Shown here: one piece after another, positions 33,102 to 64,000 of the stretch
How positions within the stretch are numbered: position 1 is the stretch's first letter
Layout of the letters: each line of letters begins with the position of its first letter
Source: Amphiscolops sp. MND2022
Lineage: Eukaryota
Direction of reading: 5' to 3'
DNA: 64,000 nt
NCBI GenBank assembly: GCA_964187785.1
Contig: OZ076409.1
Location: 41,728,001-41,792,000 of the forward strand
The notes under the pieces: generated by a model
What the model saw: the letters and a program-made list of their open reading frames with translations, nothing else
Databases searched by the model: none
Told to the model about the DNA's origin: nothing
Made by a program: the position numbers and the translations under genes

Positions 33102-33336
33102 TGTTACATTCGGGTTCATTCCGGTTCATGACCTTGCCGAGTTTCGGTTCCAAGAACTACAAACCATTTAGTTTATATGTCTAGAATACCTACTAGTGTT
33201 GACAAATACACATTACATCAATACTGAATTAGACATCTCATTTATACTATTTTGATATCTACAATCTAGACTTACAAAAGAGATTAACTTTTAGAAACCT
33301 TTCTTTTCTTAGAACCTAGTTTGTTAGAATAGAACA
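33102..33336 (+). repeat. 5' LTR (235 bp)
   Basis: TGTTACATTCGGG...AATAGAACA; differs from the 3' LTR by 3 transitions and 1 indel (counted by eye). Confidence 0.95.
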
Positions 33337-33346
33337 TGGCGCAGTC
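33337..33346 (+). promoter_or_regulatory. Primer binding site, probably tRNA-Ser
   Basis: TGGCGCAGTC directly after the 5' LTR, complementary to a ...GACUGCGCCA tRNA 3' end. Confidence 0.7.
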
Positions 33347-33391
33347 AGCGAATTTTTAAATAAACCGGATTCTTACCAACAAACTGAAATC

Positions 33392-36300: not shown

Positions 36301-38540
36301 ACAACATCCGGGCAGTCCGATATTAGCACTCTGAAAGTTAGTCAAACATCAATCACTGAAAACTTTGACAATATGGATCGTGAAAACTTTTATCACTGGG
36401 GAGCCACCCGAGAGATTATGGACATCATTAGAAGAAGAAATAACAGTCCAGAGACAAGAAGAATTGTCGAACAACGCAATGCACTGTCCCGACCCGGCAC
36501 ATTGAGACGCCGGTATGACCATCAAACACAACGTACGGTTTTTGCTCCGACCCGGCCAAATAAACGTAGTAGAGAAGAGATTGCCGAAATCGATGCCGAA
36601 TTATTCCGGAGAGCGAACAGACTGGGGGTGGTTATCAACCGATAATCGAAGAACAAGAAAAACAACCGAACGAAGTACGGAAAGAAGGAGAACTCGAGAT
36701 GGAAAACGAAACTGAAGAGGACAGCACAATCATGCGGGGCGACATTTTACCGATTGTGGACTTTTCTAAATACAACATAGAAGGCAAAGAAGCAAAGTAT
36801 ATGCAGAAAAACCACATTGTTGGAAAATTAACCGCAAACAAAAAGGCCACCGAAGACCACATCAAAAAAGCTGAATTTTAGTTTATACTGGACCTGAAGA
36901 CGCTGATATCAAAAACAGCAATTGATCCGGAGCTGACCCGAGTAAGAACCAGCATGCGCCGAGAAGATAGAGAAACTAACCCGGACGGCTACCGTACGGT
37001 CTTCGAAAAATCATCGATCAGATGGGGCCTGATATTCGTGGACAACCAAATCGTCATACCCATCGATCTCAGACGACGACTGCTCGATATCCTTCATTTC
37101 GGTCATTCCGGCATCACAAAAATGACAACCGAAGTCAAAATTTTCTGGTGGCCGAACAAAAAACAGGACATCGGAACGAAAGTCAAGGATTGTACAGCAT
37201 GCCTAGCATCAGGTAAAAATCTTAACTATCCATTACCGAAAAAACATTACGGAAAATAATCAAAATTGTCCGAACCCGGACAAGAAATACAAATTGATTT
37301 TTCCCGAAAACTACACAAAAAAGTTAAGCGGAGAAACACAAATGCTAATCGCGATTTAGCAAGATTTAGCAAGTGGCCGACAGCGAAATTTGTAAAACTT
37401 CGGAAACAAAAGAAGTAAAAAACTTCCTATCTAGTAATTTTAACTTATACGGAATACCGGAAAAGATCAAATCGGACAAAGGGGGGGGGGCATTCATTTC
37501 AAAAGAATACCGACAAGTTGTTGTAAAAACCGAAATAGAATATTGTACACCCCGAATGCACACCGGAAACGGAGTAGTCGAGAGAGCAATCCAAACAATC
37601 AAAAACCTAATAATAGCAAACATGGAAGACGCACTATGCCTAACCGAAAGTGTAAATCGGGCACTACGGGTAATACGTTTTACAATACATACAATACTTA
37701 CGGGATTGAAAGTAACACCGTTTGAATTACACCACGGAAGAAAACCGAGAACCGAATTAACAAATTTTGTTAAAGACGGAAATACATACTTATCTAATTG
37801 GTCGGAAATGACTATTTCAGCTCCGGACAGACCGAAACTTCTAATCCATGTGGGTCGCGATGCGGAAGGTTGAATAACAACCACATCATAATGGCGAAGA
37901 CGAAGAACGAAGAAAAACAAGCGGGAGAAAACAAAAAGTCATCGAAAAAGAAAAATTCGATTAGATACCCTTTCTCATTCGTTGAAAAAAATTATAATAA
38001 AAGTCCCTAGAAGGGAAGAGGTTTCAAAACAAATACAAACCGCAATAAGCGGAACCGAAAACACCGTAAAAACGGATACCGGAAAAGTAATTCACCGAAA
38101 ATTTATTTCGGGACCATTATTTCAGACCGAGAAGAAAACACGAAGAGAGACGACACTAAATACCAACGGCGAAATAAACCCGAAAAATAGACACTGCCTA
38201 CGAGGCTTCGATGGCAAATACGGCAGATGGGACGAAATACTCCGTGATATACTAAATGGAAAAGATCGTCCAAAACTGGAAACAGACGGCAAGCGACACG
38301 GAAGAAGAAGATGATTATGAAGACGATGAAGAGATGCCGGAAGAAATCGGGACACCAACACCGAAGATATATGATACCTCAGAACGGGACGGACGGTATG
38401 CACCAATCCGGACTAACCCGGAAGAAGAAGATACACTACAACTGCATACCGACGGCGAGATATCGGGTGAGAGTGTGAAAACAAAAATAAGACGGTCTTT
38501 CCGAGATAGTAAAAAACCGAATAGATACGGTACCATACTA
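33392..38540 (+). pseudogene. gag-pol, disrupted by many stops and frameshifts
   Basis: Zn knuckles CRFC...HKCPA...CNKCGKKGHFAKAC; protease IDTGS; RT WLDD; RNase H (DAS, ELELLAV, TDHQAL, DYLSR); integrase H-FGH...CTAC, SDKG, GNGVVER. Confidence 0.92.
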
Positions 38541-38703
38541 TACACTGGACTGGAAATTTTTGGGGTTAAAAATAAAATGTTTAAAAAGAAATTGTACTTG
38601 TTACAGGAAACGTGTGGATCCGTCCAAAGGGAACACCACAACCCGAGAAAATCCAAAAGCCCGCAGAAGAAGAAACACCCCCTGGAACATCAAACCAGAA
38701 CTG

Positions 38704-38730
38704 AGAAGGAGGAGAGGAAAGAGGGGGAAA
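38704..38730 (+). promoter_or_regulatory. Polypurine tract
   Basis: AGAAGGAGGAGAGGAAAGAGGGGGAAA directly before the 3' LTR. Confidence 0.9.
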
Positions 38731-38966
38731 TGTTACATTCGGGTTCATTCCGGTTCATGATCTTGCCGAGTTTCGGTTCCAAGAACTACAAACCATTTAG
38801 TTTATATGTCTAGAATACCTACTAGTGTTGACAAATACACATTACATCAATACTAAATTAGATATCTTCATTTATACTATTTTGATATCTACAATCTAGA
38901 CTTACAAAAGAGATTAACTTTTAGAAACCTTTCTTTTCTTAGAACCTAGTTTGTTAGAATAGAACA
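38731..38966 (+). repeat. 3' LTR (236 bp)
   Basis: Direct repeat of 33102-33336. Confidence 0.95.
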
Positions 38967-44417: not shown

Positions 44418-45718
44418 GGAAGGCGGAAATTTCGTCGTAAGAAATTTCGTCGTATTAGCCAATCCAGAAATGTCGTCGTCAGAAATATTGTCGTGAGAAA
44501 TTTCGTGGTATTGATTAGAATTAACAGCGTTCACCAAAAGAAACCATTCGAATTATTCAATTATTAAAATGAGATCTCAAGAACAAGTTTCCTTTTTCAC
44601 AAAAATTGAGTCAAAAAGTTGATTGCATTCAATCAATTCAATCAAGACGCTTAAGTCTTGAACTATTTACTATTTTACGGTGTAAAAAAAGTGAAAAAAA
44701 GAACACGAAAAAACTTTGCTGAAGATTCTCACCACACTAGACTAGATCAATTACTTTGAAACTTTGTGTCAATACTCATTGGGCGTTTAAAGTACTTTTC
44801 CATGAACATACTTGTATACCTAGGTATACAAGTATGTTCATGGAAAAGTACTTTAAACGCCCAATGAGTATTGAGACAAAGTTTCAAAGTAGTTGATCTA
44901 GTCTAGTGTGGTGAGAATCTTCAGCAAAGTTTTTTCGTGTTCTTTTTTTCACTTTTTTTACACCGTAAAATAGTAAAATAGTGATAACAGCATGATTTGC
45001 TAGTATGACCATTCACGCATTTCAAAATTAATTTTATTCCAAGTGTACAAAAATATACATAGGTGAGATCCCTCAAGTAAATCTGTTAATTATTATTTTC
45101 CGCACATATTTCTAATTATTATTTTCCGTCCATATTTCACACGGGAAATGAAAATATTTGAATCAGCCGCGTTTTTATCAAAAAACTGCCATGTTCCAAA
45201 CGCGGACCCAAACTGAAAGATTTCACCCATAAAATAAAACTGACATAAGTTTAGTTTCATGCGATATGTTTTTGGATTACCAGAAATTTCGTCGTCGGTA
45301 ATTAAGTTCTATAAAACGTCGCATTCCATCTAATCTATTAGGAATTGTCTATTATTATTGAGTTTACATGTACTTATCCTAATAACTATCGTTAATTGCG
45401 CAGTTACCAGATACACCTGTTTCTTAAAACCCCGAACACGAAATCAGCTTTCATGCTTGATAAAACTTCTCGTGCGAACAAATGTATATTGAGAGCTCTC
45501 GATATACATTTGTTCGCACGAGAAGTTTTATCAAGCATAAAAAGCTGATTTCGTGTTCGGGGTTTTAAGAAACAGGTGTATCTGGTAACTGCGCAATTAA
45601 CGATAGTTATTAGGATAAGTACATGTAAACTCAATAATAATAGACAATTCCTAATAGATTAGATTGAATGCGACGTTTTATAGAACTTAATTCCCGACGA
45701 CGAAATTTCTGGTAATCC
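44418..45718. mobile_element. DNA transposon remnant (GG termini, 8-bp TSD), internally rearranged by fold-back duplications
   Basis: Ends GGAAGGCGGAAATTTCGTCGT / ACGACGAAATTTCTGGTAATCC; TSD AAGAACAT/AAAAACAT; subterminal AGAAATTTCGTCGT repeats; interrupts a family B repeat that resumes after 45726. Confidence 0.65.
44663..44981. repeat. Loop-less palindrome, ~158-bp arms
   Basis: Centre ...GTATACCT|AGGTATAC... between 44821 and 44822; 2 mismatches and 1 indel seen. Confidence 0.95.
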
Positions 45719-46009
45719 AAAAACATATCGCATGAAACTAAACTTATGTCAGTTATATTTTATGGGTGAAATCTTTCAGTTTGGGTCCGCGTTTGGAACA
45801 TGGCAGTTTTTTGATAAAAACGCGGCTGATTCAAATATTTTCATTTCCCGTGTGAAATATGGACGGAAAATAATAATTAGAAATATGTGCGGAAAATAAA
45901 TAGCAGATTTACTTGAGGGGTCTCACCTATGTATAATTTTGTACACTGGGAATAAAATTAATTTTGAAATGCGTGAATGGTCATACTAGCAAATCATGCT
46001 GTTATCACT
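44980..46009. repeat. Loop-less palindrome, ~515-bp arms
   Basis: Centre GAGAG|CTCTC between 45495 and 45496; ends AGTGATAACAGCATG / CATGCTGTTATCACT; about 10 differences between arms. Confidence 0.96.
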
Positions 46010-47899: not shown

Positions 47900-50580
47900 C
47901 CTATCTTTTATTGAAATCACGCCCACACTCTCTCCAGCAAAACATAAAATCATAAAGATAACACGTCAAAAATACGGACGTCATTCTGGATGCTGTTTGT
48001 ATAACGGCATTATCGCAGACAAGGTCAAACTGCAGTGAGTACAATTTCATGAGTACAATTTCATTGATCGCTATAGCCATGATTGTTTTCCGATATGACA
48101 TTCAGCATTGAAAACGCACTAAGTCCGTATTTTTGACAGTTTCGTGTTCTATTTATGATTATTTGCTTTGACCATCAAACTTTGGCTAAACACTTCGGAG
48201 TTTTTTGTCACCAACACCTAACTGAATGCATAACACGACCTGAACAATTAAACTGAAACTCAACTATCATGCATATTGAACCTCTGAAAAATAATTTACG
48301 AAATTTGGTGCTAATTCTTATGGTACAAATTCCTTGGACGTAGTTGATTTTCCACGTTTTCGCAACATTTGCTCTCTAGAAACTTTTCTGAGCTGTTGAT
48401 TTGCTAACAGTTTCCACTGAAGTTTGTTTTGCAGAAAACTAAACTTTTCAATAGAACTTTCGAGAATTGATACACTATGGTAACAAAGGGTTATAACCCT
48501 TTGTTACCATAGTGTATCAATTATATTCACTAGAATTATAATTCACTAGATTTGGTTGAAAAAAATTAAATCGCAGTAATTTTTTACATATTCAATTGAC
48601 ACAAAAATCGCAAGAACAAAATTTTGTTCAATTTTGATTAAAATTACAGGGTTTTTTTGTTTTGCAGTGAAACAAAACCGACAAAAATTATAACACTAAG
48701 CATATTTTTGACGTTTGACAGTATCTGAAATTTACTCATGCAATATTTCGGAATCGCTCTTCATAACAAGAAATTATTCCTGCAACAAAATTTGTACCTT
48801 TCATTCAGACCTCTAACTTTTGGTTTCAACTTTTTGTGAAAAGTCCCTCCTTATGAATTGACACCGCAGAATGATCACAAAATGAAAACTCTTCAGTTTT
48901 TACACAGTGAAAATATTGTTTCGACGGAATTACAACTGTTTTTGGCTGTTCTTTTTTCAAGGATGCATTTCCAGAAAAACTGTTAATTATAAAGTTGAAG
49001 AACGGTGTCAAGGCTTCAAAAGTGATCGGGTGATCTTTTTCTTTCATATCATCAGTAGGTTTTGAGATATTGCATAATGAAGTTCGAAAAAATCCAAAAT
49101 TACTCAAACTGTCATGTAATATCCCTTTCGAAATTTCGGCTTCAAAACAAACTGTACCTTTGTAATTCTCATTAAATTTTGAGATAGTTCTGCTCCTGTG
49201 ATTTTTCTGTAAAATGAATAAAATAAAAGATATTTCGTTTTGAAATATTTCGTTGGCCAAATGGAGTGTACTTAGATTTTTGATACCTTAGTGTACAAGT
49301 TTTGTTAAATAATTCCATTGTTCGCATTTAGATAATTTTTATCTTGTTCTGAGATATCGTCGGCAATATTTTTGCTGCGAGAGCAAAGATTCAAAGGTTT
49401 CGCACTGGTCACAGTCGAATCCAACACTCTCCTTGGCAATATTTGAAGAAAATTGTAAATGAATTCAGACAAAATTGGTTCTAAAGTCATCTAGGGTTCG
49501 GTAATAGCGCATTTGCCATCGAAAAAAGCGCTAAATTGGCGAATAGTACAAAAGTTATTCAATTGAAAAGATACTGTAGTAAGACACTGGTTGGATGCAA
49601 ACTGCTACCTGGGGTGCTAATTGGTTAGTTGGTACTAATGAATTCAAAAGAAAAAGAAAAAAAAAAAGAAAAACAATGTTAGCACGTTTCCAGGCTGAAC
49701 AATACTTTTTTCTACTTGCAACCATCAAACAATGCAAAAAGGAGAAATATTTTGTGAAACGTTTTTCCATAAATCTGTGTCAAAGTACAAGGAAGAGGGA
49801 AGCCCATGGGAGACCCTTCGGTAAAAAATCCATGAAATAAGTTGTTCAGAGCCAAAATACCTTAAGGTGGACACGTTTGTCTCTCTCACTGTGTTGCATC
49901 AGATAAAAAGGTCAAGAAATTAAAGGCAGCACTTCGGCACACCTGAAAGCACTCCTGATATTAGACCAATCTAAAAGTTGAAACAAAGTTTTCCAAAACT
50001 TGTTGCATTGTGCCGAAAAAACTCCAGAGTTGACTGAGGTAGACAGCTGATGTAACTGCTACGGCAAGTGGGAAGTACTTTTCGATCTACCAAATCCAGA
50101 AGTCTAGTATTAACAGTTACTATTGGTCGAAGGCCGCCGCCTGTGACGGTAATTTTTACCAGATTCTGCTAGAAGGTGACAACACCATCCGACGTTCTAC
50201 CAATTTGAAACCGTGTGGACCTTCAGTCTACGCGGCCAAAACAAAACTTAGATTTAATGAACCTGAAATGTATTATGCTTTAATATGGAATTTTGTGTCT
50301 GTCATAGAAGAAAGTTATTGTTGTTTTGTAATATGTTGGAAAGGCTGTTCAAAAATGCAGTAAATTGATACAAATGTAAACAATTGAAGAGCAATTGAAT
50401 CAGTATAGGAAACGAGTTCAAATGAATTTTTGTTGTCGCACTGTGGACTCGCTGTCAAAATGTTATTATTATCCAATGAGAGCGCAGTATTTATATTTAT
50501 TTTGCTGTATCCGCGCGGACTGGAAGTCCGTCGCTGTAAAATTGTCACGTGACTTACACCATTGCAATACTTGTTTGTAT
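47900..50580 (-). pseudogene. Possible decayed SLC22/organic-cation-transporter-like (MFS) gene fragments
   Basis: CTGCAG acceptor then FDLVCDNAVIQTAS (48029 downward); after a frameshift FAGESVGVISIKDR|GT; Cys-containing segment ...CDNKNSFELVSYTDSIALQ at ~50380-50580. Confidence 0.4.
48465..48522. repeat. Perfect 58-bp loop-less palindrome
   Basis: AATTGATACACTATGGTAACAAAGGGTTA|TAACCCTTTGTTACCATAGTGTATCAATT. Confidence 0.95.
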
Positions 50581-50705
50581 CACTGTAGCTCGACAGACCT
50601 AAAGTCCACCATGGTTAATTTACAAAGCTTGCTTGAATTACAATATTAAAATTATATGTAATGTTGCAGTCGATAGTGTATACATGAAAATTGAATACCT
50701 TGACA

Positions 50706-51404
50706 TGTAAATTTGACTTGAAGGCCTAACCGCTCAATAACCTGATTTGCCTTTGATGTCATTTTGATACAATGACGTCACCCCGATCTAACCCTAAAGG
50801 AGCTATTTTTGGAAATGCTATAGTCTAATTTTTGCTACAAGACATGCATAATTTCGTTAGTCAAAGCCAGCTAACTATAAATAGTAGAGACTGCTAGTAC
50901 TGGGGACTTTAGTCTACTCAAACTCAATGCAAGCAAGTTGATCACTATTCGATTTGTTACATTTGATTGAAATTAGAACCTTTGTCACTTGATATAAACT
51001 TTACGTTTTGTACTGACCGTTTTTAAATTCACTCTTGGAAACGAACTCTTTCTCCGATGCCTTCAACTAGAAACAGAAAGCACGAGAGAAGCGGTCCAGA
51101 AAATCAGACGTAAGTTCTGATTTAAAAAATGTAGATATAATGCTGGGTAGTTACTCAAGGAACAATGAAGTGAATGATCAGAATGACAATGATATTACTT
51201 TAGACTCAGGGTCTAGCAGACTAAACCGAAATTCTAACTTTGTCGGAGAAGACATTAAGATCTCTCCTTATTGCAAATAGTAGAGAGAATAGCTAAGTGA
51301 CAATTGAGACATCTAGCATGATTAACAATGAAATTTTTAGACTCAATAGACAGAGGTTCTGCCACTCTAACTAACGAAGTAAAAAGTAGTTTGATATAAC
51401 GTTT
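50706..51404 (+). mobile_element. Putative older LTR fragment interrupted by the large Gypsy element
   Basis: TGTAA start, TATAAATA at ~50876, decayed basic ORF start at 51057 (MPSTR/KQKAREKRSRKSDVSSDLKNVDIMLGSY), cut at the 51405 LTR. Confidence 0.4.
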
Positions 51405-52150
51405 TGTAACGATAAGCGCTGGCGCTTGAACCGCAACTTAGAGTGGAGGAACTAGAACAGCGAATATAATCTGGGACTTAGATCTCCGCGGCCCTAGCTC
51501 ATTTTCCCTCCGTAGGAGCTAGTCCCGAGGTGGGGGAACCGTTTTGTAAGAAACTATCTGGCCTGGTCCCAGTCTGTAACTGCTAAAAGTAACAGGCATC
51601 TTGCTTAACTCAAGACAACTGCTCAACTAGCCTTTAAAAAGGGGGCTGAAAACAAGAGAAGGTTGAGCCATACTATTGGAGAATCTGATAAAATCGATAT
51701 AGCCAAATTAGGTAAATACAGATGTCAAAGGGCAGCTCTCGAGCATATCAATCTACTACAAAGAAAAACACCATAAAATCAACAGTTTGAGTCATTTTAA
51801 AGGAAATTGACCTCGGCTTCCAGCGCTAACGCTCGTCACCACACAGGACACCGCAAGGATATTCAGGCACGCATCCGGAACACTGGTTTCTGCTACTATG
51901 ATAGTGTTAATCTCCCGGGGATGGGCACAATACCGTGTTCTATAGACGGAATAGACGTCTTTTCGGTCGTCTCTTGCGTTCGTTTTTCGCGGGCGGCGAT
52001 TTCTGCTCTTCTGGTTTGCTTTTCTGGCAGGTCTTTCACCTTGAGCATGTTTGAGTGCCACGTCAGATTTGAACGAATTTTTGACAAAATTTCTGAACAT
52101 GTCGAGTTACAAAATCGGTTGATATTGCTGTGCCAGAGCTTGCCGTTACA
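51405..52150 (-). repeat. 3' LTR (746 bp) of the large Gypsy element
   Basis: Terminal inverted repeat TGTAACG...CGTTACA; purine-rich AGAAGCCCGGGGAGTGA on the minus strand just inside (52151-52167); partner LTR not in window. Confidence 0.75.
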
Positions 52151-52939
52151 TCACTCCCCGGGCTTCTGGCTTGTCGTCCCTGGCAAGCGGCATCTGGGTT
52201 CGTCTGGAAACTGCGTCACAGTGACTGCTGGGAACCATCCTCCACACATCAGGGGACAAGGACGAGTCCTTGTTTTTCAGCAACAATTTTGGTCAAATTT
52301 CGCGGTTTTTTTCAAAGAAAATCTTACTGCCTAGTTATTTTTTACAAAAACGCGAACGAGGTTTTAGCACCAGCTCGAGAGCTAAGATTTTCAGCCGGTT
52401 AAAACTCGTTTGGGCAAGTAGTTTTCGCTAAAAATTCTTTTGCGACCAAGGTCAGCTAAAATTTCTTTTTCATGCAACTTGACATTCGCAGTTTTCAGTC
52501 AATTTCGGGTAACATAAAACTTCTTTTAGGAGCGCGCAAGTTTGCCTACGCACCAGACAGACAATTGAGGATGATTGAACAAACAAAAGGCAAGGAAAAA
52601 CCGCAAAAAAATGTAACTAAAAGGCTAAAACTTCGTTTTAACTTTGGCAACTCAAAAACACCGCGAACGGTGCGCAACGAAAAAAGCAGTTTTTCTTTGG
52701 TAATATTCTCTTTTTCAACTTTTTAGTCTATGCAGCTGGGGCAGGCGCACTCTACTGGCCGTACACCCAGCGCGACACCAACAACACATTAACTAAATAA
52801 TAGCTACAAACAAAAATTGCACCTTGTACGGGTAGCACCGGTTAAAGCTATGAGTTTGAAGGCACTGTTTTGGTTCAAATTCAGAGTCTATAGGAAGCGC
52901 GAACGCTCCCATTGGCGGCAGGGATAACTGAGCCGAGCT

Positions 52940-55900
52940 TCATCGAGCTCGATCTTTAGTGGCCTCGTCGGAAACCTCTACATTTCCAGCATCTTCCAAT
53001 GCGATTGATGCTCTGCGTTGAGCTGGAACCACAGTGACTACTGTCTCTGAGTCTGAGATATCTTCAGGGAGCGCTAAGTCCGCGATTGGCTGCACCAGGA
53101 CAGTGTTTGGGGTCAGTTCAGCGTCATGCTCTCCGGTTTGTGGCTGGGATGATTGAGGACTGGCTTGTGACGATGATGGACTGATGGGTTCCGGCCTCAA
53201 GACATGAATCGGTAGGTAAAGGGTTATGGGCCGGGGGGCTGGTTGACTTAGAGACATAGCCATCGTCGGCGCGAGCATGGTAGGCGCGAACGCCTGTTGT
53301 CTGGCAACCTCTGCTCTACTCTCCACGGCCAATGATACTCGCTTGGAAATCCAGCCTGGTTGATTCCAGAGATAGCAAGCTCGTTTCCATTTCGGGAAAC
53401 TGGTGATCTCCATCTCCAAACAATGTCCCTCCCACTCTGCGCGGGCTTCGGGTCCTAGCACGGAATTATTCTCATCGTGCAGCACGATTGACATATCTCC
53501 GGACATTGTCATCTTCCCTTGTGGTCTCCATACGGATTTTCGGGGAAACGGAGTGATGCGGCACCGAAGGTTTCTTTGTCTAATTTGGGCAGCTCCTTCT
53601 ATCCAACCCGGGATTTGCGCCAGTTCCAAATGTTGGATTTGTCGATTGAGGGTCTCTGGGGTGCGACCAACGGGCTTCGGTCTGGGCCAACCCAGTGGTT
53701 CCTTCCAGTAATAGTTTGGAAAAGTAATGCATTTGAAGGTGTAGAGAGGATCTATGGGTGGACCAGCACTAGTGCTGGCACGGATCACCTTGCGTATAAA
53801 CTCTTGAGTCCACGGAAATCTGAAGGGGACTCCGTTCAGACTGCGGGGAGCTGAGTACCAATTGACTGGGCCATATTCTCGCGGCAGAGGGCATGCTTTT
53901 CGCGTGCGAGCACGCAGTAGACCCATCAAATTCTCCTCCAGCTGTTTCTCGGACTTTAAAGTAGGGTATCCATGCAGCATCTCTCCACTCAATACGGCTT
54001 GTATCACGCGCTGGTAGGCCAGTGAAGGGCATCCTTGAAGATAGGTGCAGAAGGATACCATATGCACCTGCACTGCTCTCGCGAGAGGTATAGTCGGGTA
54101 CCTGCACACGCCTACTGCGCCGAAGATTGGGGCCAAAACAGGAATCATGGTGGCCACAAAGTCCTCCACTTCGGCCAACGTTAAGTCAGCGAGTTGCTGA
54201 GGCATGGGAAACCCGGTCATCTCCCAGGGGATCTGTCGTTCTGCATTATGTAGGGGTTGCGACTTGTCCACGTCTACAAATAGGCCAGAGGCGAACACCA
54301 GGGTTGAGTACAACCAATGTTGGATTGACGCACGCATGCGTTCCAATTGAGCGGCGTAGTTTTGCTGGTCCTTAGAATTCATAAGGTGGCCCCAGCGGAT
54401 TAGGCTGCGTAGTTGTCTTTGCGCCAGGATCAGATAGCTGTAGAAGGTGATCAGGTCTCCCGATATCACAACGTCTACTAGCATGGCTAGAGGGCCAGCC
54501 ACAAACTTCGTCGGGCCCATTGTTAGCGCGAGCTTCCACTTCGTCTTTCAGATTGGTTGCTTCAGCGGCCACGATGTGTCTAAGGCACACGGGCAGCTTA
54601 ACGGGTTCGATTCCCGTAGCGAAGCTGATCTGCGGAATTGTTCTTTCGACTGTGCGTGCAGCAGGCCACGTTCCAATCTGTTTCGTTAACTCAGCCAATT
54701 CGGCACGCACTGGAACTTCTTTGTCCTTGCGCACCAGCCAGTTATGGCGACGGACAGCTTCTCGTTCCGTTACGTTGGATTCCCGCATGACGCGATTGCC
54801 ATCCAAGTCGAAGGCCATTCTTCGCATATACATTCCATGGTCGAAGAGCACAGCGTCATCGATAGTCAATTGTGTGTTCCCCGAACGCTCTACAGCGATC
54901 AACACTCGGGATATCGCAGCGAAGAAGGCTGGGTATGACAGCACGTCAGGGCGCAAGTCTCCATGATTAACCCGAAGGTTCGGTGCACAGATAGCAAAGT
55001 CAATCCTGCGTGCCTTGCACACTTCCAACCGGATATAAACGAATTGTTGCAAACTTTGCTGGCAGTACATGAATCCTGGCGGAGACACGAAGAGCGCCAA
55101 CGCTCCCAGGCGACCCCGAAGGATCCCTGCGGCACGCTTCATTGCATCCGTCACAGAGTTGACTAATGTTGCGACGTTCCCATGTCGGCGGGTGTCAGCC
55201 ATGATGGTATCCAGGTCGCGCAACAACCCTTCGCACACCATGTGGTCTAGTAGATTAGCAAAGATCACTCTATGTGGGGTGGTTCTTTCAGTGATCCTCT
55301 CAGGTTCGGTCATACATTACCCCAACCATTTCAGCAACTTCGGCGAAGCGGGACAGAGGCATTGTCAAGACTAGCACGTCGGGCATTAGATTGTCAATGG
55401 GTAGTGTCAATTTGCAAGTGGAATCCACTGCCACACAGTAGCGCGCACGCTGCAAAGCTGCTTTCAACAAGGGCTTCATGGAAACGATGTTGCGGGCGTA
55501 GCGGGCATTCGCTTCCCAAGTTTCACCATCTCGCAATATGTACCGCGCGGGGAACTGCTCGGTGATATTATGCTGCAGGGGCGCCATGTAGTTGTTAGGT
55601 GTCATAGGCAGTTGCTCTCGAGCACGCTGTTCCCAGGCTTGTTCGGACATATCTGCATCACGGGGACGCAGCACTCGTGTAATCTGCGCGGCGATGGTTA
55701 CTCTATTCACCTCTTTCTGGTCAGCTTCTGTGGGGGGCGTTCTCCTTCTGACCGCACACATATTCGGGTGTAGGCGTTCAGCGGCCATCCAAATTCGCTT
55801 GCTGTCGCTGGTCATCACAGAGCCAGACACATCGTCAGATGGGGGAAGGAAAGCAGGGGGGCTAGCCTCCTCGATTGCCTCAGGCACTTCCAGAGACATA

Positions 55901-57007
55901 TCAGCTGAACCCGTGCCCGAGGGCACAGAGCTCATTTCAGGGCCTGCATCTGAGTCGCCGTATTGTTCAATGGCTTCTTGCATGGTCATTTGGGGGCGCA
56001 CCTCGGCCCAGGTGTCCAACAAGATATGGGGGCCTGACTATGACCACGCTCTTCATCTGAGGTTGCTGCGGCACATCGGCGCGCTTGTCCGGAGGGGGAC
56101 GACTGGTTGGGCTCTCTGTCACTGAGTCAGTGCGGGCAGCGGCGGTACTCCCTCCCGTCACTCGCTTTCGTCCAGCTTCTTCACGTTGGCCGTTCGCAGT
56201 GCTGCCACTTGGAACAGCTGTAGTGCTACTGCTGGGTCCCGCTATGGTCTCGGTGTCCATAGATGCTGTTTCGGCTAAAGTGGTGGGAGTCTCACAGCCC
56301 GAGGGCTGAGCGGCGGCTTGCAAATATCCAGCCAACCCTGGAATCCTTTGTTCAACTGCCCGAATGATATCAGAGGAATTGGGATAGTTTGCCACTGCTT
56401 GCAAGGCCACTATCACTGCTTGTTCACCAGTGCTTCGCCCAATAAGATTCAGGTTCGGCACAGGTGGCAACCGAGGCCCCGAGGGCTCCCGATCAGAGAC
56501 TGTTTGATTAATTGGAGTTTGCGATGTCATCTGTTGGGCTCCATATGGTGCTCCGAAAGCAGATGAGCCAGAATAAGCTGGCGTCATCGGCACTGGGTTT
56601 GGTGCTGAAATTGGCGGCAACGACGGAATGTTGGCAGGCATCATTCGTAGTGAGGCCTCTTGCTCAAATCTGCTGCCTTGGCTCGGGCCATACACTGCGG
56701 TAGACCGCTCGTCTAGGAATTGATGGGTCAAGTCGTAGCCATCCCAGGCATTATTGGTGCAAGTTAAGGCGCGGCGGTAGCCAGCTACCTCAGTTACAAT
56801 TGAGAGCGATACGCCTGGCAGCGTTTGCATTGTGTCAAGCTGGGTGAGCAGCGCTGCTACACCAGCGATGGCCACTGGCGGAAGGCCATTCCGCAGTCTC
56901 TCCTCTACATACTGGGCCTGGTTGACCCTCTGGGCTCGCGCAGATTCCTGAGGCCTTGCACTATTAGGCCCAGTTGCAGGCACGGAGATGCTGGGGCAGT
57001 AGGCCAT
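52940..57007 (-). pseudogene. Extra ORF of the Gypsy element (~1350 codons, three frameshifts), contains an SGNH-like segment
   Basis: Four overlapping same-strand ORFs (55967-57007, 55300-56022, 54372-55313, 52940-54520) tile the span from ATG 57007 to TGA 52940. Confidence 0.75.
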
Positions 57008-57287
57008 TAACTTATAGGTCTAAAAAGGACGACTGTTAGGCTTACGCGGTGAGTTTTGGTGGGAGCTTAAGGCTCGTCACCCAATTACAGTATTGCAATA
57101 TTGGCTCCATAAGGGAACCTCAACAACTTAAATCTAACTCTAACTAAACTAAAACGAAAACATTTAGGGAAGTAACATAACAAGTTGATACTTCGGCGGC
57201 AAGAGCGTTCAAGACTCTTCCACGGGTACTACAAATGAATAAGTGTGAAAGGGGGATAGGGACTACTGGGATGATAAGGCGATAAGG

Positions 57288-58690
57288 CTACTCCAGCCCT
57301 ATACTCAGTATTGACACATATACGCGGCTGTGTAAATCCACATGAATACCAGTACCCTCGAACAGGTTCGCTAGGGCATGGTACAAATTGACCAACGAGA
57401 AGGTAGGTCTCTCGGGGTCCAGAATGGGCAAGTGGACACGTGCGGATCCCTTGTCCATTAAGCGCTGTATCAGGTGTGTCATGCAGCGCAGATAGTCATC
57501 AGTCAGCAGCGGCGCACGCTGGTTCGCTCGGATTATCAATAGATGAACATTCTGGTTGGGATTTGGATTAATGTCAGGGGGGATAGTGAGTATCTCACCC
57601 ACCTTAGGCCGTAAGGAAAATACGCTTTCCATGCCACATTCTCGCAGCACGTATCGCAAGGCGGCGGAGTTAGTTTTGAGGTCAGCAGGGCATGCTAACA
57701 CTATATCTCCTTCTGCTTGTAAAAAGTCTGTTTCGTCGTACGAGACATGTTCGGCTGAGTTTGGATAGAGGGCTCCCGGGTAAACAATTTCTCGTCCGGG
57801 TCCGTTATCGGAAGGTAGGCACACACGAGGCGTGCGTCCTTGAATTGCAGCCAGGTCTTGCCATACCGAACGGGGCATCGCTTGATTGTCGCTGCTAGCC
57901 TTGACCCACGTGTCCAGAGTCCCCAGAGCGGCTTTTGGGAACAGAGGGACCTCGAATGTGTGAGTCCACTCATCTAGCAGTCGAATTCTGGGATAGGTGG
58001 TGAAGCAGGTGATGATCAGTTCCAACCACCATGCAAATTTCATCTTACCCCGATACCAGTCTATGATATGAAAGCAAAGTATCAAGTCCGTAGTGGTAAG
58101 GGTCCTTAGACTCTCTAAACAGGACAGCAGGTGTAGCGGTTCCACAATTGCCTCCACTCGTGGAGCAGTAACCAGCAACCACCAATGAGGAGCAGGACTA
58201 TATACTCCACCCGGTTCCACTTGAACTCCATACTTGTCGCACAACAAATCAGCAGTGATACATCGCGCCATTTGCACGGGTTCCCTTTCAAAATTGAATG
58301 GTCCGAATGCAATGTTGTTGGGCACAGGGTGCATCACGGTGGGCAAAGTGAACTCCAGGCCCTTTCCATCACTTGTCCACTCCTTAAACCGAGGGCAAGG
58401 AGCCTTCGCTACTCCAGGTGATGATAGCTTCTCAAGGATAGTGTCCACTGGGTGATCTGCGGATCGCTCTACCGCGGAGTAGGTTTTCTCGGCCCGCACT
58501 GTAAGGCGGTACACTAGTTTTTCTCCCTCTTCCGGAGGAACTCCCCGGGCTCCAGTGGGAACCCTCCGGTTCTCATCAACAGCCAACAAGCAGACACAGT
58601 CTCGCAGCCCGCAAGTTCCACATTTGTAGCGCGACAGCCGTTTACTCCTCAGGTAATACCTTGGAGCTTCGGATGCTTCTGCAGATTTTA
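57288..58690 (-). CDS. Post-integrase Pol extension with a Cys cluster and a C-terminal macrodomain-like region
   Basis: The frame of the 433-aa ORF is open upstream through 58690 (YKCGTCGLRDCVC) and overlaps the integrase stop; the C-terminal ~145 aa align by eye with OARD1/TARG1. Confidence 0.7.
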
Positions 58691-60697
58691 AGTTTTCGGT
58701 CTCGGTTGGATTGCTGTTTCGGCTGAGACCTCGGTTTCATCGTTCGTTGGTGTTTCTTTCTTCCTCGTTCTTGCCTTTGCTTGAACTAGCCGTTTCTTCT
58801 GCTCCTTGGGTGGTCTCCCCCTCCCCCGTTTAAAAGAAGGAGCGGTCCCCGCTCCGGGCCAAGCTGAGGGAATATCAGGCACTTTGGGCTGAATGTCACT
58901 TTCATCGCTGGCAGACTTCAGAGGAATAGGAGGAACGGTCGGCCAGATAGGATAGTTGCTAAGGAAGTTGGTAAACGAGGGGTTCGTTATTAGAGATGCC
59001 GACGTTCCCGGCAACGACGAATCCTTATCGGAGGAAGATATTTGTGGAGACGGTGAGCGCACGCGCTCATGGTCAGAGAATAGTTGAGGTAGAATACGAG
59101 CGGGTGATATCGATTGATCTGAAGCAGCCGGAGGAGCCTCAGGCTCCACATGATCCGCATCAATAGGATTCGGAGGCACCGGCAACATGACATCAGATAA
59201 TTCGTCATCAGTACCCGAGGTGGAATAGTCGAATTGCTGATAATGCATACGCGAGCCTCCTGCGCGTAGCTTTGTACGCAATCGAGTGTCCATCCAGTGA
59301 CGTCTGCGTGAGGGTAACGACACATCGGACGCTTCTGAAAGCAGTTGTTCGGACTTATACGAGGGAAGCGATTTGTCGTCATCAACCACGTCGACGGAAC
59401 GTTCAGGTTCGGGGTCCATGAGTACTACTACGTCACCGCTGTCCACGTGTGCAGCAGCAAGTTCAAGCGGGCCACTGTTGTGTGGTTTGAGGCGCTCGAA
59501 ATGAACCTTTTGGCCCGTGTCCAGAACGTAGACACGACCGTCCTGGAAGACTTGGACAATCTTGTGAGGGCCACGCCAAGCGCGCTTCAGCTTGGGGGAT
59601 CCTATTTGTGGTACGTAACGGCAAAAAACCCAGACAAGCTCTCCTGGCTGGTAAGCTCGCGCTTGTATTGCACGATCGTATTTGAGTTTTTGACGTAGCT
59701 GGGCTTGGTGCGTGTTACGTCGCACCAAGTCATGAATTTCTTGTTGGCGAGCCAACAGGTGATCGACGTACGCTTCATGCGTTTCAAATGACTTGGCCGC
59801 AAACTCGGGATACAGAAACGTGAGAGGAATGGCTTTTTCCACACGCCGAGTTAACATGTAGTGTGAGAAGCCAGTGGTGGCATGCCTCGTAGAATTATAG
59901 GCACCCATGACTTCGTCAAGACATTGGTCCCAGTCGCGCATGCGGCGGGAGCAAAAGACTCGTAGTAGGGATAACAGTGTTCGGTTTTGGCGTTCCACCA
60001 AGCCTTGAGTCCTTGGATGTCCTGCAGTGGAAGTCACCTTCGTGACGTGGGCTGCTTTCAAGAATTCATTGGATACTTCGGCAGTTAAGTTCGGAGCATT
60101 ATCTGATTGCATTCGAGTGGGTGTGCCATGACGGGCAAACCATTTTTGCAGCAGCAATTGAGATGTGGTTACAGCGTCATAGTCGTGATGACTACAAGGG
60201 ACTGCTTCTGCAAACTTAGAGAAATGGCCGATGATGACCAAGATGCCGGTGTTGTTGTTGTCTGAGGGGCAGATCTTCAAGTGGTCGTACTGGACCAATT
60301 CAATGAAGTACCCGCTCTGGAGGTTTTTCAGATGGAATCGGACGTCACCAGGTTTATCACGTACCTGTTGACAGGTGAGGCATTGGCCAACATAACGGCC
60401 CACACTGCGTCGAATGCCAGGCCATGTGTGGCGTTCTTGAATTCGGGCCACCACCTTGAAGATGCCTTGGTGTCCCATGGCGTCATGTGCGCGGAACAAG
60501 ATCTCGTGTTGATATAATTGAGGCATGATGATCATGCACGGGCGTTCGTGCAAAGGGCGTTGGTTGGGGGAATACCGTACGCAGAGAACATCATTTTTGT
60601 TGATGAACAGGAGATCCTTTTTCTGACGGTAATAGTTACGTGCGAACTCACGCACGTTCTCAGGAAAGATGTCGTGGTCGATGGATTTGCTCAGCAC
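58688..60697 (-). CDS. Gypsy integrase region
   Basis: HDAMGH...CLTC zinc finger; YDHL, SDNAP, GLVERQN; WRGPHKI; long S/P/D-rich tail with KRGRGRPPK. Confidence 0.93.
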   Translation of the reverse strand: MLSKSIDHDIFPENVREFARNYYRQKKDLLFINKNDVLCVRYSPNQRPLHERPCMIIMPQLYQHEILFRAHDAMGHQGIFKVVARIQERHTWPGIRRSVGRYVGQCLTCQQVRDKPGDVRFHLKNLQSGYFIELVQYDHLKICPSDNNNTGILVIIGHFSKFAEAVPCSHHDYDAVTTSQLLLQKWFARHGTPTRMQSDNAPNLTAEVSNEFLKAAHVTKVTSTAGHPRTQGLVERQNRTLLSLLRVFCSRRMRDWDQCLDEVMGAYNSTRHATTGFSHYMLTRRVEKAIPLTFLYPEFAAKSFETHEAYVDHLLARQQEIHDLVRRNTHQAQLRQKLKYDRAIQARAYQPGELVWVFCRYVPQIGSPKLKRAWRGPHKIVQVFQDGRVYVLDTGQKVHFERLKPHNSGPLELAAAHVDSGDVVVLMDPEPERSVDVVDDDKSLPSYKSEQLLSEASDVSLPSRRRHWMDTRLRTKLRAGGSRMHYQQFDYSTSGTDDELSDVMLPVPPNPIDADHVEPEAPPAASDQSISPARILPQLFSDHERVRSPSPQISSSDKDSSLPGTSASLITNPSFTNFLSNYPIWPTVPPIPLKSASDESDIQPKVPDIPSAWPGAGTAPSFKRGRGRPPKEQKKRLVQAKARTRKKETPTNDETEVSAETAIQPRPKT

Positions 60698-63600
60698 TAG
60701 TTTTTTTCAGTGCCAGCACATGCACATCACGGTTCTGGGCTAAGACTAGATCCTTGATTCCATGCACGGTGTGAGCATGTTCGTGAAGCTCGGTGTCGAT
60801 GTCTTTAAGGGCCATGATAGAGTCACGCACACCCGAAGGAGTACCTAGCAGTCTAGCTGCACTCGCTCCGGCAACTGAGTAGACAGTTTGTGAGGGTACA
60901 TTGACAGCATGCGTCGGTAACAAATAATCTTCACGGGCCTCGGCAGTGACATCGATCCAGTCTTCTGGATAGTCTGGATAGGATTCTTCATGCGGGTGTG
61001 GTGCGAGAGGTGGTAAGGGCGGGAAAGGCGCTGCTAACGCCCTTGCTTGTTTTTCTCGCCTGGTTGCTCGTTGAGTGCGGCGAATCACACGCAATACTGG
61101 GCTGGGAGCCTTAGGCTCCAAATTCTGCAGGTGCGCAGGAAGATCGGGATGATTTGGGATTATTCGACCTTGGAGGTCAAACCATGGGGAAACAGGGAGC
61201 TTGTCGAATCCGTCAGCTGAAAGGAAATTCCAACGCTTGCCCGCCGCTGGCTGCTGCGCAAGCTGTTTTTCTCGGCAACGATATTTATTGGTTCGTTTAC
61301 TCAAGCCATCGGCGTTGCGATGCTGAGTTCGTGGACGGTGTTCCACGCGAAGGTGATACTTCTCCAGGGTCATGATCCATCGGCCAATCAGTGCTTGATC
61401 TGTGGAATACGTCTTCAACCAGGATAAGGCTTGGTTATCCACTCTCAGGGTGAACTTTCGTGGACAGAGATAGCGATGGTTCTTCACAATGAAGTAGTAG
61501 GCTGCAAACATTTCCAGTTTGGGATCTCCATACTTGGCTTGTGTGGTCGTGAGCTTCTTGCTGCCATACACTATCAGTTTTAGGCGCCTTTCACTTGGAG
61601 GACCTTGCCATTGGTGCAGGATGCCAGAGATGGCAACAGCGCTGGCGTCAGTGTCCAGCACAAACTCTACTTCGGAATCGGGCTGCGCAAGCGCAGTCGC
61701 CTCGATCAACGCTTTCTTGATTTCGTTAAATGCTTTTTGTTGTTCGGAACCCCAGGTGAACGTGACGTTTAGTCCGGTGACTGCATGTAGGGGTGCGACT
61801 AACATGGCGTGCCAGGGAATAAATTCGCGATAGTAATTGGCAAACCCTAGGAAACTCTGCATTTCCGTTTTGTTGCGGGGGATTTCCCAGTCGCGTAATT
61901 TGGCAACGGCTTTCGGGTCTGGTTTTACGCCTTCTGCGGAGACAACACGTCCCAAATACTTGATCTCTGACTTCATGAAGTCGCATTTGGCTACGGGCAT
62001 TTTGAAGCCAGCTTCACGAAGGCACTCAAAGACTTCGCGTAAGCGTGCCATGTGGTCCTCTACGGTTTCGGTCGCAATCACAATGTCATCGATGTAGGCC
62101 ATTACCATGCTGCCTTCGCGGTAGACAATATTCCGTAGCGCGCGCGCTATCGCTCGCTGGAAAGTGGTTGAAGCATTACACATGCCGAACGGCATTCTCC
62201 GCCATTCAAAAAGCCCTAATTCGCAAGCAAAAGCAGTTTTGTGACGATCCGTCTTTCGTACAGGAATTTGCCAGAATGCCCAGGCAAGGTCTATGCTGGT
62301 GTAAATCTTGGCTTTGCCCAGCCGTGCCAGGCTTTCATCAATACGAGGCAAAGGATATGCATCTTTAATGGTCGCCTCGTTCAACGGGCGGAAGTCGCAG
62401 CAGGAGAGCAACTCCCCGTTTTTTTCCATTACAATGCCACTCGCCCAAGGGGACAGCGAGGGTCGTATCATCCCCAAGGCCAAGAGGTTCCGCACCTCTT
62501 GATTGACACGTTCAGCTTTTTCAGGGGACATCCTACGAGCACCTTTGCGATGCGGTACAGCCCCTGGCTCTACTTCTACGGTGTCTTTGGCGATAGTGCA
62601 CCGGCCGATGTCCGCCTTGTGCTTCATGAATAGATCATCGAACTCGTTAAGGATCTTACCGAGGGACTCGCAGGCGCTAGCGCCCCATAAATCCTTAACT
62701 TCCTGCAACTGAGATTCTGGCCCAGGAAACGGAGCCATTAGCTCTGGATCAGTACGCTTGCGAATTTCGCGCTCCGAAAGTCCTGTCTCACTAGGATCAG
62801 TTGAGGATAAAAACTCAAATTCTGAAGAAGAAGTCAACTCAGAAGCAGTGGATAGATTCATTTCACTGTACACTTTATAAACAAAATTTGCACGACCGTT
62901 GTCGGCGTTAGTTTCTTCACTGGTCGTTGTAGGAGAGCCCAGATTCTGAGGCACCGCCTGATACACTAACGACACGGGTACTACAGTGCCCAGTTGAACA
63001 CCACACCGTACACGCTGTGGGTTGCTGGAAAGGTTTATCAGACTCACGTACAATGTTCCTGTCTCACTGACAGTGGCCACGCTGTCCTCTAAAAAGACGA
63101 CATTGTGCAATGAAGTGTCAGACAATGAGGCGTTGAGTGCTACGCTTTGAAAGATCATTGGCTCTAGTGCATCGGTGACGAGCTTAGCTCTAGCCACCGC
63201 ACGTTCGAAAGGCTGTAGGACTAAGTCACAGTCCAAAACAACCGGGGTAACTAACGAAGCGTCACCTACCTGTGCATGTGCATGATGCCAGACAGGCTTC
63301 ACTGGTGCTCGCACCACGATCTTCATGGAGGTAAGGTCCACTAAGACCTGATAGGAGCGGAGGAAGTTCCGCCCTAGGAGGAAGTCCTCCACACCCATAG
63401 CGTCGTCCACCACGACAAAGTTTGTTTCAAGCTCGTATCCTCCCAACTGGAAGTGGATACGTTCCGCCAGGCCGTAAGTCTTTATTGTCTTCCCATTGGC
63501 GGCGTACAGGTCTACTTGGTACGGCTTCAGGACAGTACCGGTGCGTGCTGCCACTCTATTGAAAGCGGAAAACGTCAATATCGACACACCGGATCCAGTG

Positions 63601-63806
63601 TCCACCAACCCTCGCAATGGAATAGGTGCTGCATGGGGCACGACGAAGGAGACAACGAGCGACGCACGCTCATCAATGCGCGCCTCGCCAGTAGGTTCCT
63701 GGTGGTTAAGGTTGTAGCACTTCAGCTCTTGAGGACCAAGACATATACCAGGTGGAAATACATCTACCACTACACAAGCCTCAAACTTCACATCCACGCC
63801 ATCCAT
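60660..63806 (-). CDS. Gypsy Pol: protease, RT, RNase H
   Basis: LVDTGSG, LLGRNFL, CDFRPLN, DLAWAFWQI, MPFGM, YIDD, DTDASA; separated from integrase by a 1-nt frameshift in an A7 run (60701-60707). Confidence 0.95.
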   Translation of the reverse strand: MDGVDVKFEACVVVDVFPPGICLGPQELKCYNLNHQEPTGEARIDERASLVVSFVVPHAAPIPLRGLVDTGSGVSILTFSAFNRVAARTGTVLKPYQVDLYAANGKTIKTYGLAERIHFQLGGYELETNFVVVDDAMGVEDFLLGRNFLRSYQVLVDLTSMKIVVRAPVKPVWHHAHAQVGDASLVTPVVLDCDLVLQPFERAVARAKLVTDALEPMIFQSVALNASLSDTSLHNVVFLEDSVATVSETGTLYVSLINLSSNPQRVRCGVQLGTVVPVSLVYQAVPQNLGSPTTTSEETNADNGRANFVYKVYSEMNLSTASELTSSSEFEFLSSTDPSETGLSEREIRKRTDPELMAPFPGPESQLQEVKDLWGASACESLGKILNEFDDLFMKHKADIGRCTIAKDTVEVEPGAVPHRKGARRMSPEKAERVNQEVRNLLALGMIRPSLSPWASGIVMEKNGELLSCCDFRPLNEATIKDAYPLPRIDESLARLGKAKIYTSIDLAWAFWQIPVRKTDRHKTAFACELGLFEWRRMPFGMCNASTTFQRAIARALRNIVYREGSMVMAYIDDIVIATETVEDHMARLREVFECLREAGFKMPVAKCDFMKSEIKYLGRVVSAEGVKPDPKAVAKLRDWEIPRNKTEMQSFLGFANYYREFIPWHAMLVAPLHAVTGLNVTFTWGSEQQKAFNEIKKALIEATALAQPDSEVEFVLDTDASAVAISGILHQWQGPPSERRLKLIVYGSKKLTTTQAKYGDPKLEMFAAYYFIVKNHRYLCPRKFTLRVDNQALSWLKTYSTDQALIGRWIMTLEKYHLRVEHRPRTQHRNADGLSKRTNKYRCREKQLAQQPAAGKRWNFLSADGFDKLPVSPWFDLQGRIIPNHPDLPAHLQNLEPKAPSPVLRVIRRTQRATRREKQARALAAPFPPLPPLAPHPHEESYPDYPEDWIDVTAEAREDYLLPTHAVNVPSQTVYSVAGASAARLLGTPSGVRDSIMALKDIDTELHEHAHTVHGIKDLVLAQNRDVHVLALKKTSAEQIHRPRHLS

Positions 63807-64000
63807 TGTCGCGCAACGGGCACTGGGGAATACGTCGTCAGGGTTTCAGACTCTCCCGGGACGTACCACTCCTTCGGATGGGGCAACTCGACTCGCGTGT
63901 AGAGGATAGACAATTCAACCCAAAGCTTTGCAAGAGTCAATGTTGGTTTGCGGACTTGTTCGGCGGCTAATAACAGGTGGATTGAAATCAACGTCCGTCC

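Follow-up and report, generated by a model that had tools for sequence, protein, structure and literature searches.

The Vesta LTR retrotransposons of bdelloid rotifers carry in the env slot an ORF3 that encodes a GDSL esterase/lipase with intact catalytic residues, for which a role in membrane passage or in auxiliary steps of replication has been proposed (Rodriguez et al. 2017, PMC5408684; this and the other papers are cited from excerpts of their text). The GDSL ORFs in the env slot of rotifer LTR elements and the dead GDSL copies of Athena-L are also described in PMC6431247. Here we describe an extra ORF in the 64,000-nucleotide stretch of DNA that was analysed (the window), which like Vesta ORF3 combines an SGNH fold, in this case a predicted one, with the env slot of an LTR retrotransposon and is without env features (PMC5408684). 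Vesta ORF3 is about 1.3 kb long and has its catalytic residues intact, whereas the window ORF is about 4.3 kb long and multi-domain, appears to keep only the Ser and has no detectable similarity to the Pfam GDSL families.

Other systems share part of this organisation. GDSL derivatives in the Penelope-like Athena-L elements resemble the window domain in being a retroelement SGNH fold without catalytic residues, but Athena-L belongs to a different class of retroelement and is not an LTR element (PMC5408684). The ORF1 esterase of ZfL2-1, from the CR1/L2/RTEX non-LTR elements, also places the SGNH fold in a structural protein of a retrotransposon, and its lipid binding is independent of the active site; for the window domain lipid binding would be an analogy (PMC3905857). 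Unlike the window domain, the ZfL2-1 esterase has an active triad, a basic surface and a gag-like position before pol (PMC3905857). The OSK domain of Oskar (5a4a) is, as predicted for the window domain, a non-catalytic SGNH fold, but it is encoded by a host gene, has lost the Ser together with the whole triad and binds RNA, whereas the window domain keeps the Ser (PMC10792757). In Ngaro retrotransposons an extra SGNH ORF of unproven function lies, like the ORF in the window, at the 3' end of the element, where it follows the recombinase; Ngaro elements, however, are tyrosine-recombinase elements, and their SGNH_hydrolase is recognised by domain annotation, unlike the domain described here (10.1101/2021.08.05.455354). 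Since GDSL ORF3s in LTR retrotransposons and dead Athena GDSL copies have already been described (PMC5408684), the idea of such a domain at this locus is less new than an earlier, first-pass annotation of the window implied. Our literature search, with most subscription journals, Repbase reports and supplements outside its scope, brought up no publication describing a gypsy element with a catalytically dead SGNH ORF3. What appears to be new is a Ser-only, Arg-substituted form of 1,400-1,500 aa in a gypsy element, which resembles the known ORFs in position and fold and would not be an active SGNH hydrolase.

The gypsy element and its extra ORF

The element is a Ty3/gypsy retrotransposon on the minus strand that extends from at least position 64,000 down to about 52,900, with its 5' end beyond the window, and its GC content is about 52% as against about 36% in the flank. 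By Pfam it has the PR-RT-RH-IN domain order of Ty3/gypsy (Table 1). In relatives the integrase is joined in frame with RT-RH; gag lies past the window end, and in relatives a CCHC knuckle is found upstream of pol. Neither an LTR pair nor a clear PPT was found for this element in the window, which stops short of its 5' end, and Rfam gave no matches in 50,000-64,000. In its 3' region the opposite strand has a stop-free frame of 177 codons (51,801-52,334, plus strand). Elsewhere in the window are exons of an animal host gene in the flank (about 3,300-19,700, plus strand) with a CH-like stretch and coiled coils, presumably related to CAMSAP/Patronin; a second, degraded gypsy-like element (33,102-38,966, plus strand) with direct repeats 98-100% identical and about 5.6 kb apart, as an LTR pair; and MITE- or foldback-like nested inverted repeats (44,666-46,009), near-perfect, with arms of 359, 156, 115 and 47 nt.

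Table 1. Coordinates in the window of the gypsy element's features and of the pieces of its extra ORF (P0017 is an unbroken relative)
Feature	Position	Strand	Remarks
Ty3/gypsy pol (aspartic protease, reverse transcriptase, RNase H)	60660..63845	-	Pfam RVT_1 E 5e-33, RT_RNaseH_2 3e-21, gag-asp_proteas 9e-8
Integrase (H2C2 and rve core) with long low-complexity tail	58688..60706	-	Pfam Integrase_H2C2 5e-16, rve 1e-6
C-terminal extension of pol: Cys-rich motif, globular region, TARG1/OARD1-like macrodomain (~57,310-57,740)	57288..58736	-	Continuous with the integrase tail in many relatives
Splice-acceptor-like site: CTAAC branch-like word, pyrimidine tract, TAG	57020..57039	-	12 nt before the ATG at 57,007
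Piece A: conserved N-terminal region, short, followed by a Pro/Ser/Thr-rich linker	55995..57007	-	Matches P0017 residues 1-330
Piece B: linker followed by SGNH blocks I and II	55309..55995	-	P0017 330-558, 81%; Ser codon 55,422-55,420
11 domain codons in the third frame, with a frame break on either side	55277..55309	-	P0017 559-569, 91%
Piece C: SGNH blocks III-V and conserved flank	54531..55277	-	P0017 570-818, 82%
N-x-x-D-H in piece C	55,256-55,242	-	
Arg at the His position in piece C	54,953-54,951	-	
Piece D: remainder of helical domain, hydrophobic stretch (~54,104-54,160), further region, low-complexity tail	52940..54532	-	P0017 892-1426, 83%
Whole predicted SGNH-fold domain, broken in the window copy	54888..55449	-	Residues 24-213 of a relative's domain model match SGNH hydrolases (Z 10.7 at best)

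The extra ORF lies behind pol on the minus strand (57,007-52,940) and is in broken pieces. Its position in the env slot of a Ty3/gypsy element agrees with the first-pass annotation, and the six peptides quoted there were found on the minus strand where it had placed them: YCVAVDST (55,440-55,417), VLVLTM..EMV (55,377-55,324), PHRVIFANLLDH (55,277-55,242), ALFVSPPG (55,097-55,074), LEVC..FAI (55,028-54,990) and GDLRP..RVL (54,962-54,900). The single frameshift that it assumed within the domain has to be replaced by two breaks, near 55,309 and 55,277, with 11 third-frame codons between them. Compared with its relatives the window copy has a further frame break near 55,995, lacks 73 codons at 54,531/54,532 and has an early stop, the frame of piece D ending five codons before the stop of P0017.

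Twelve full-length relatives in three subfamilies have 1,426-1,521 aa: seven have 1,426 aa, three have 1,435 aa, and two have 1,473 and 1,521 aa, the last two sharing just 32-41% identity with the window. In all 12 relatives of at least 1,400 aa pieces A, B, C and D are covered in order in one frame, so the proposal that the four ORFs join in intact copies holds. Because these relatives are unbroken while the window copy carries breaks, we conclude that the extra ORF is a real gene under constraint and that the window copy is dead. The evidence for selection consists of unbroken frames in subfamilies that are only about 40% alike, and of clusters with 581, 491 and 173 members. The length of about 1,350 aa given earlier is correct for the window copy, as a result of the 73 absent codons, and too short for the family.

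When longer proteins were searched with piece C, 62 relatives were found, each an unnamed ENA protein; the representative search for relatives covered the best 150 of 601 matches, and the most remote relatives fall outside this sample. One family member, P0278, is annotated on a contig of 816 bp in a Bacteroidota MAG and is probably host DNA in the bin. DNA scans of JGI metagenomes, viral contigs and GTDB genomes found no relatives of the extra ORF, and an RT DNA scan gave 42 distant loci, none of which had the SGNH-fold domain, the macrodomain or the tail of the protein P0505 described below. With equal length as a proxy for the same contig, the 119 contigs that have the extra ORF coincide with 10 of the 147 that have a pol tail, 7 of the 103 that have a close RT and none of the 73 that have a sister RT, which by this proxy links the extra ORF to the present element. 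In the relative P0003 the SGNH domain is followed by a predicted all-helical domain (residues 390-565, pLDDT 79-97; window about 54,290-54,532, with the first part absent), whose conservation between subfamilies is about 35-57%.

The splice-acceptor-like site upstream of the ORF is the sole one in the element's 11 kb, there being seven in 128 kb on both strands at thresholds that were set post hoc. This putative acceptor at 57,020 would fit an env-style spliced RNA. The view that the protein shows no env hallmarks was largely upheld. Four long relatives were examined by a simple scan for hydropathy and motifs, which is not a trained predictor, and no clear signal peptide, furin site or C-terminal membrane anchor was found: three of the four are without a hydrophobic N-terminus (that of P0049 has a hydropathy of 1.7 over 9 residues), and R-x-[RK]-R occurs only at the very C-terminus and not internally. 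The qualification is one hydrophobic stretch of 19 residues, about 400 aa from the C-terminus, with a Kyte-Doolittle value of 2.1-2.3 and of 1.7 in the divergent subfamily.

Predicted fold and active-site positions of the middle domain

Natural unbroken relatives were folded instead of the window copy. The P0017 domain alone (267 aa, 69 sequences) gave a model with pLDDT 80 and pTM 0.80, in which five strands with helices between them form an alpha/beta fold of flavodoxin type, along which blocks I, II, III and V follow in order; P0003 (886 aa, 143 sequences) gave a pTM of 0.50. When the P0017 domain was compared with 48,161 chains by VIA-align, 44 chains had a Z of at least 8 over model residues ~24-213, the top matches being 3p94 (Z 10.7, the best; rmsd 4.0, 177 aligned) and 8a2n (rmsd 3.6, 187 aligned). 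A Z below 8 may reflect a common arrangement; the top rows here lie above 8, and one superfamily dominates the best 50. Among these 50, 12 titles state GDSL/SGNH, and the rows other than these and a further seven are presumably SGNH-type also. The further seven are SGNH-fold entries or belong to SGNH-fold families according to PMC10792757. OSK (5a4a) is at rank 39 of the 50 (Z 8.2, rmsd 3.9, 155 aligned, identity 6%), below active esterases, and ZfL2-1 is not among them. In the second model, residues ~61-295 of P0003 again match SGNH hydrolases by VIA-align (best Z 8.0).

Foldseek had been put forward as a check in the first-pass annotation. For the P0017 domain model it gave no matches at E<=0.001; a designed scaffold heads the rows and many GDSL enzymes follow it, the best annotated hydrolase being 4iyj (E 0.015, probability 0.98). 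For the 886-aa P0003 model Foldseek likewise gave nothing significant, either in the PDB or among viral structures, where the weak rows are long helical proteins. Pfam GDSL (Lipase_GDSL, Lipase_GDSL_2) and OSK gave nothing at E<=1 for the window pieces or the 69 alignment members, and nothing at E<=10 for eight relatives; PDB sequence searches gave no match for the domain, and the ESM Atlas no usable match. The link to SGNH is purely structural, without a sequence-level match. With two models of unbroken relatives both matching SGNH hydrolases, the middle domain of the extra ORF very probably has the SGNH fold, as the first reading of the locus had suggested.

Conservation at the catalytic positions was counted in an alignment (A4) of 68 proteins and the query stretch (67 chosen from 132 candidates, near-duplicates and some fragments being dropped, with P0287 added). 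The block register comes from motifs, the secondary structure of the model (strands 27-31, 48-52, 84-88 and 141-145; last helix 193-210), the P0505 repeat and the block table of PMC10792757, and not from atomic distances; the alignment with the P0505 repeat fixes the register of block III. Block I has Asp in 42/42 rows and the nucleophile Ser in 40/42, the preceding Gly being replaced by V, I, M or F. The Gly position of block II is L, C or H in all 55 rows. Block III reads N-x-hydrophobic-D-H, with Asn at the Gly position in 55/56, no Asn at the oxyanion-Asn position (0/56) and a conserved His, H93, in 52/56. At the His position of block V there is Arg in 54/57 and His in none, and the Asp position has Asp in just 7/57. 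The first-pass annotation had read the block order as matching, with NLLD in the place of GxND; by motif register the N of NLLD falls on the G, so that besides the His the domain has lost the oxyanion Asn, the Gly of block II and the Asp of block V. Its claim that the catalytic His is replaced by Arg stands, with a wider loss than it supposed. That the Arg might be a lesion of the window copy was ruled out, since it is family-wide. Two single proteins outside A4, P0222 and P0420, have His at the block-V position, which is probably point decay.

Judged from the alignment, of S-G-N-D-H only the Ser would be retained in nearly all family members, and we are fairly confident that the classic catalytic triad has been lost. 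Among the 46 A4 rows with <60% identity, D32, S33, N89, D92, H93, R190, P191 and S195 are each conserved in at least 85%, and the pocket is therefore under constraint. The charge of the domain is near neutral, K+R being about equal to D+E in 34 rows. In the rows of the PMC10792757 block table consulted, the Ser-only pattern is absent; SGNH enzymes there (Table 2 of that paper) tolerate the loss of Gly, Asn or Asp, and every enzyme retains the block-V His, with OSK alone lacking it.

The sister lineage and the pol tail

A search with the RT region led to a sister gypsy lineage of about 55% identity. One of its proteins, P0505 (2 cluster members; best PDB sequence match Ty3 Gag-Pol), has a shortened integrase core that runs on into a tail bearing an intact GDSL domain at residues 1320-1490 (Pfam Lipase_GDSL_2 E 9e-7; GDS, GTND and DGIH present). 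A second repeat at residues 1740-1855 is degenerate and truncated and ends in GINDH, of which the D-H is common to the window family; it keeps the Ser and has Asn for the block-I Asp (A-N-S). Against the profile of the window domain this repeat scored 31.6 over 79 columns, whereas 69 shuffles reached 20.4 at most and 26 unrelated windows 16.7. The intact GDSL domain that precedes it in P0505 matches neither the window-family profile (score 12.6) nor the second repeat. The score of the second repeat suggests that the window family may descend from the degenerate half of a tandem pair of active and degenerate SGNH domains, an ancestry that rests on a single case because P0505 is one rearranged protein, with its integrase cut and its second repeat truncated.

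The frame of the pol tail before the extra ORF has 482 aa; a separate gene was ruled out there, the tail being fused to the integrase in relatives, and of two suspected macrodomains in it only the last is supported. A profile of this macrodomain that included sister-lineage members matched OARD1 entries only, five of them at E 1.3e-5 to 1.8e-5; E was 0.06 without the sister-lineage members, and the sister-lineage protein P0553 alone matched OARD1 at E 1.5e-5. A TARG1-like macrodomain is present in the pol tail of the sister lineage too. The OARD1 words LITKK and GCGLD, which we take to hold the catalytic Lys and Asp and the GCG loop, align with LITRA-like and DPERP-like words, and the GCG loop is replaced. 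The macrodomain therefore looks degenerate and apparently disarmed. Macro-domain ORFs are mentioned for fish endogenous retroviruses in PMC4977317, and our literature search found no paper on macrodomains in gypsy pol. A doubtful extension of these observations is that the gypsy clade once had a tandem SGNH pair in the env slot, that of this pair the window lineage kept only the degenerate domain, with a pocket (Ser, N-x-x-D-H, Arg) remodelled for new ligand binding or catalysis, and that the element uses two captured pseudo-enzymes, the other being the disarmed macrodomain on pol, for membrane traffic or evasion of host defence without an envelope protein.

Possible roles of the protein

Our preferred reading, to which we give a probability of roughly 0.45, is that the extra ORF is a conserved accessory gene in the env slot, broken here, whose SGNH-fold domain is without classic catalysis and would serve as a lipid-ligand module that tethers the particle or RNP. 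The product would be a cytosolic accessory protein expressed from a spliced subgenomic RNA. Its disarmed SGNH domain, derived perhaps from the degenerate partner of an active and degenerate pair like that in the one sister-lineage protein, would bind a ligand, most likely an acyl or anionic lipid group, in an anion or acyl pocket formed by the kept Ser and the conserved Arg, and through this pocket the element's particle or RNP may be anchored at membranes or lipid-rich bodies. The ZfL2-1 esterase still binds liposomes when its active site is mutated, and it leaves oligo-(A) RNA unbound (PMC3905857). For the window family lipid binding is an analogy only, because its domain is neutral whereas liposome binding by ZfL2-1 is charge-driven.

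The neutral charge would suit a domain that purely contacts other proteins, as a scaffold or as a decoy aimed, for instance, at host silencing or innate defence, in which the pocket is kept for structure and binds no small ligand. Long disordered linkers and further helical domains in the same protein point the same way, as does the second apparently disarmed enzyme fold of the element, the macrodomain with its replaced GCG loop. We nevertheless think a scaffold rather unlikely: Ser, Arg, Asn and His are conserved at canonical active-site positions down to about 30% identity, and among the conserved pocket residues just two Asp have a known structural role according to PMC10792757. The same conservation can be read as a re-wired enzyme, and H93 speaks against a pure ligand module in that it leaves space for a re-wired active site. 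The Ser (40/42) could work with the block-III His of N-x-x-D-H (52/56) or with the Arg in a slow hydrolase or acyltransferase; the D-H is shared with GINDH of the sister repeat, and SGNH enzymes can do without the Gly, Asn or Asp (PMC10792757, Table 2). However, the block-V His is present in every enzyme of the table rows consulted, OSK alone being without it (PMC10792757), the sister repeat has Asn for the block-I Asp and the oxyanion residues are gone in the window family, all of which makes catalysis unlikely.

An alternative that follows Oskar is that the domain binds RNA and serves to package the element's RNA or to bring it to germ-line granules, OSK being a non-catalytic, RNA-binding SGNH fold (PMC10792757) and among the structural matches. 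We consider this quite unlikely, in that OSK ranks below active esterases at 6% identity and is without the Ser kept here, the window domain has no net positive charge, and the ZfL2-1 esterase showed no binding of oligo-(A) RNA (PMC3905857). Most improbable is an unrecognised envelope or fusion glycoprotein, with the SGNH part as a parallel to the haemagglutinin-esterase of enveloped viruses. The env-slot position, the splice-acceptor-like site and the hydrophobic 19-mer would fit it, but the two close subfamilies are without a signal-like N-terminus, an internal R-x-[RK]-R site is absent, and the hydrophobic stretch, which is less pronounced in the divergent subfamily, lies far from the C-terminus.

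The locus bears on a wider puzzle, the repeated capture of SGNH domains by unrelated retroelements (CR1/L2, Ngaro, Penelope and rotifer LTR elements). As the family is invisible to Pfam, other env-slot ORFs of this sort have probably been annotated wrongly or not at all. A large, multi-copy family in which fold and pocket are conserved and the triad has been dropped would be a natural test of whether it is binding or hydrolysis that these elements need.
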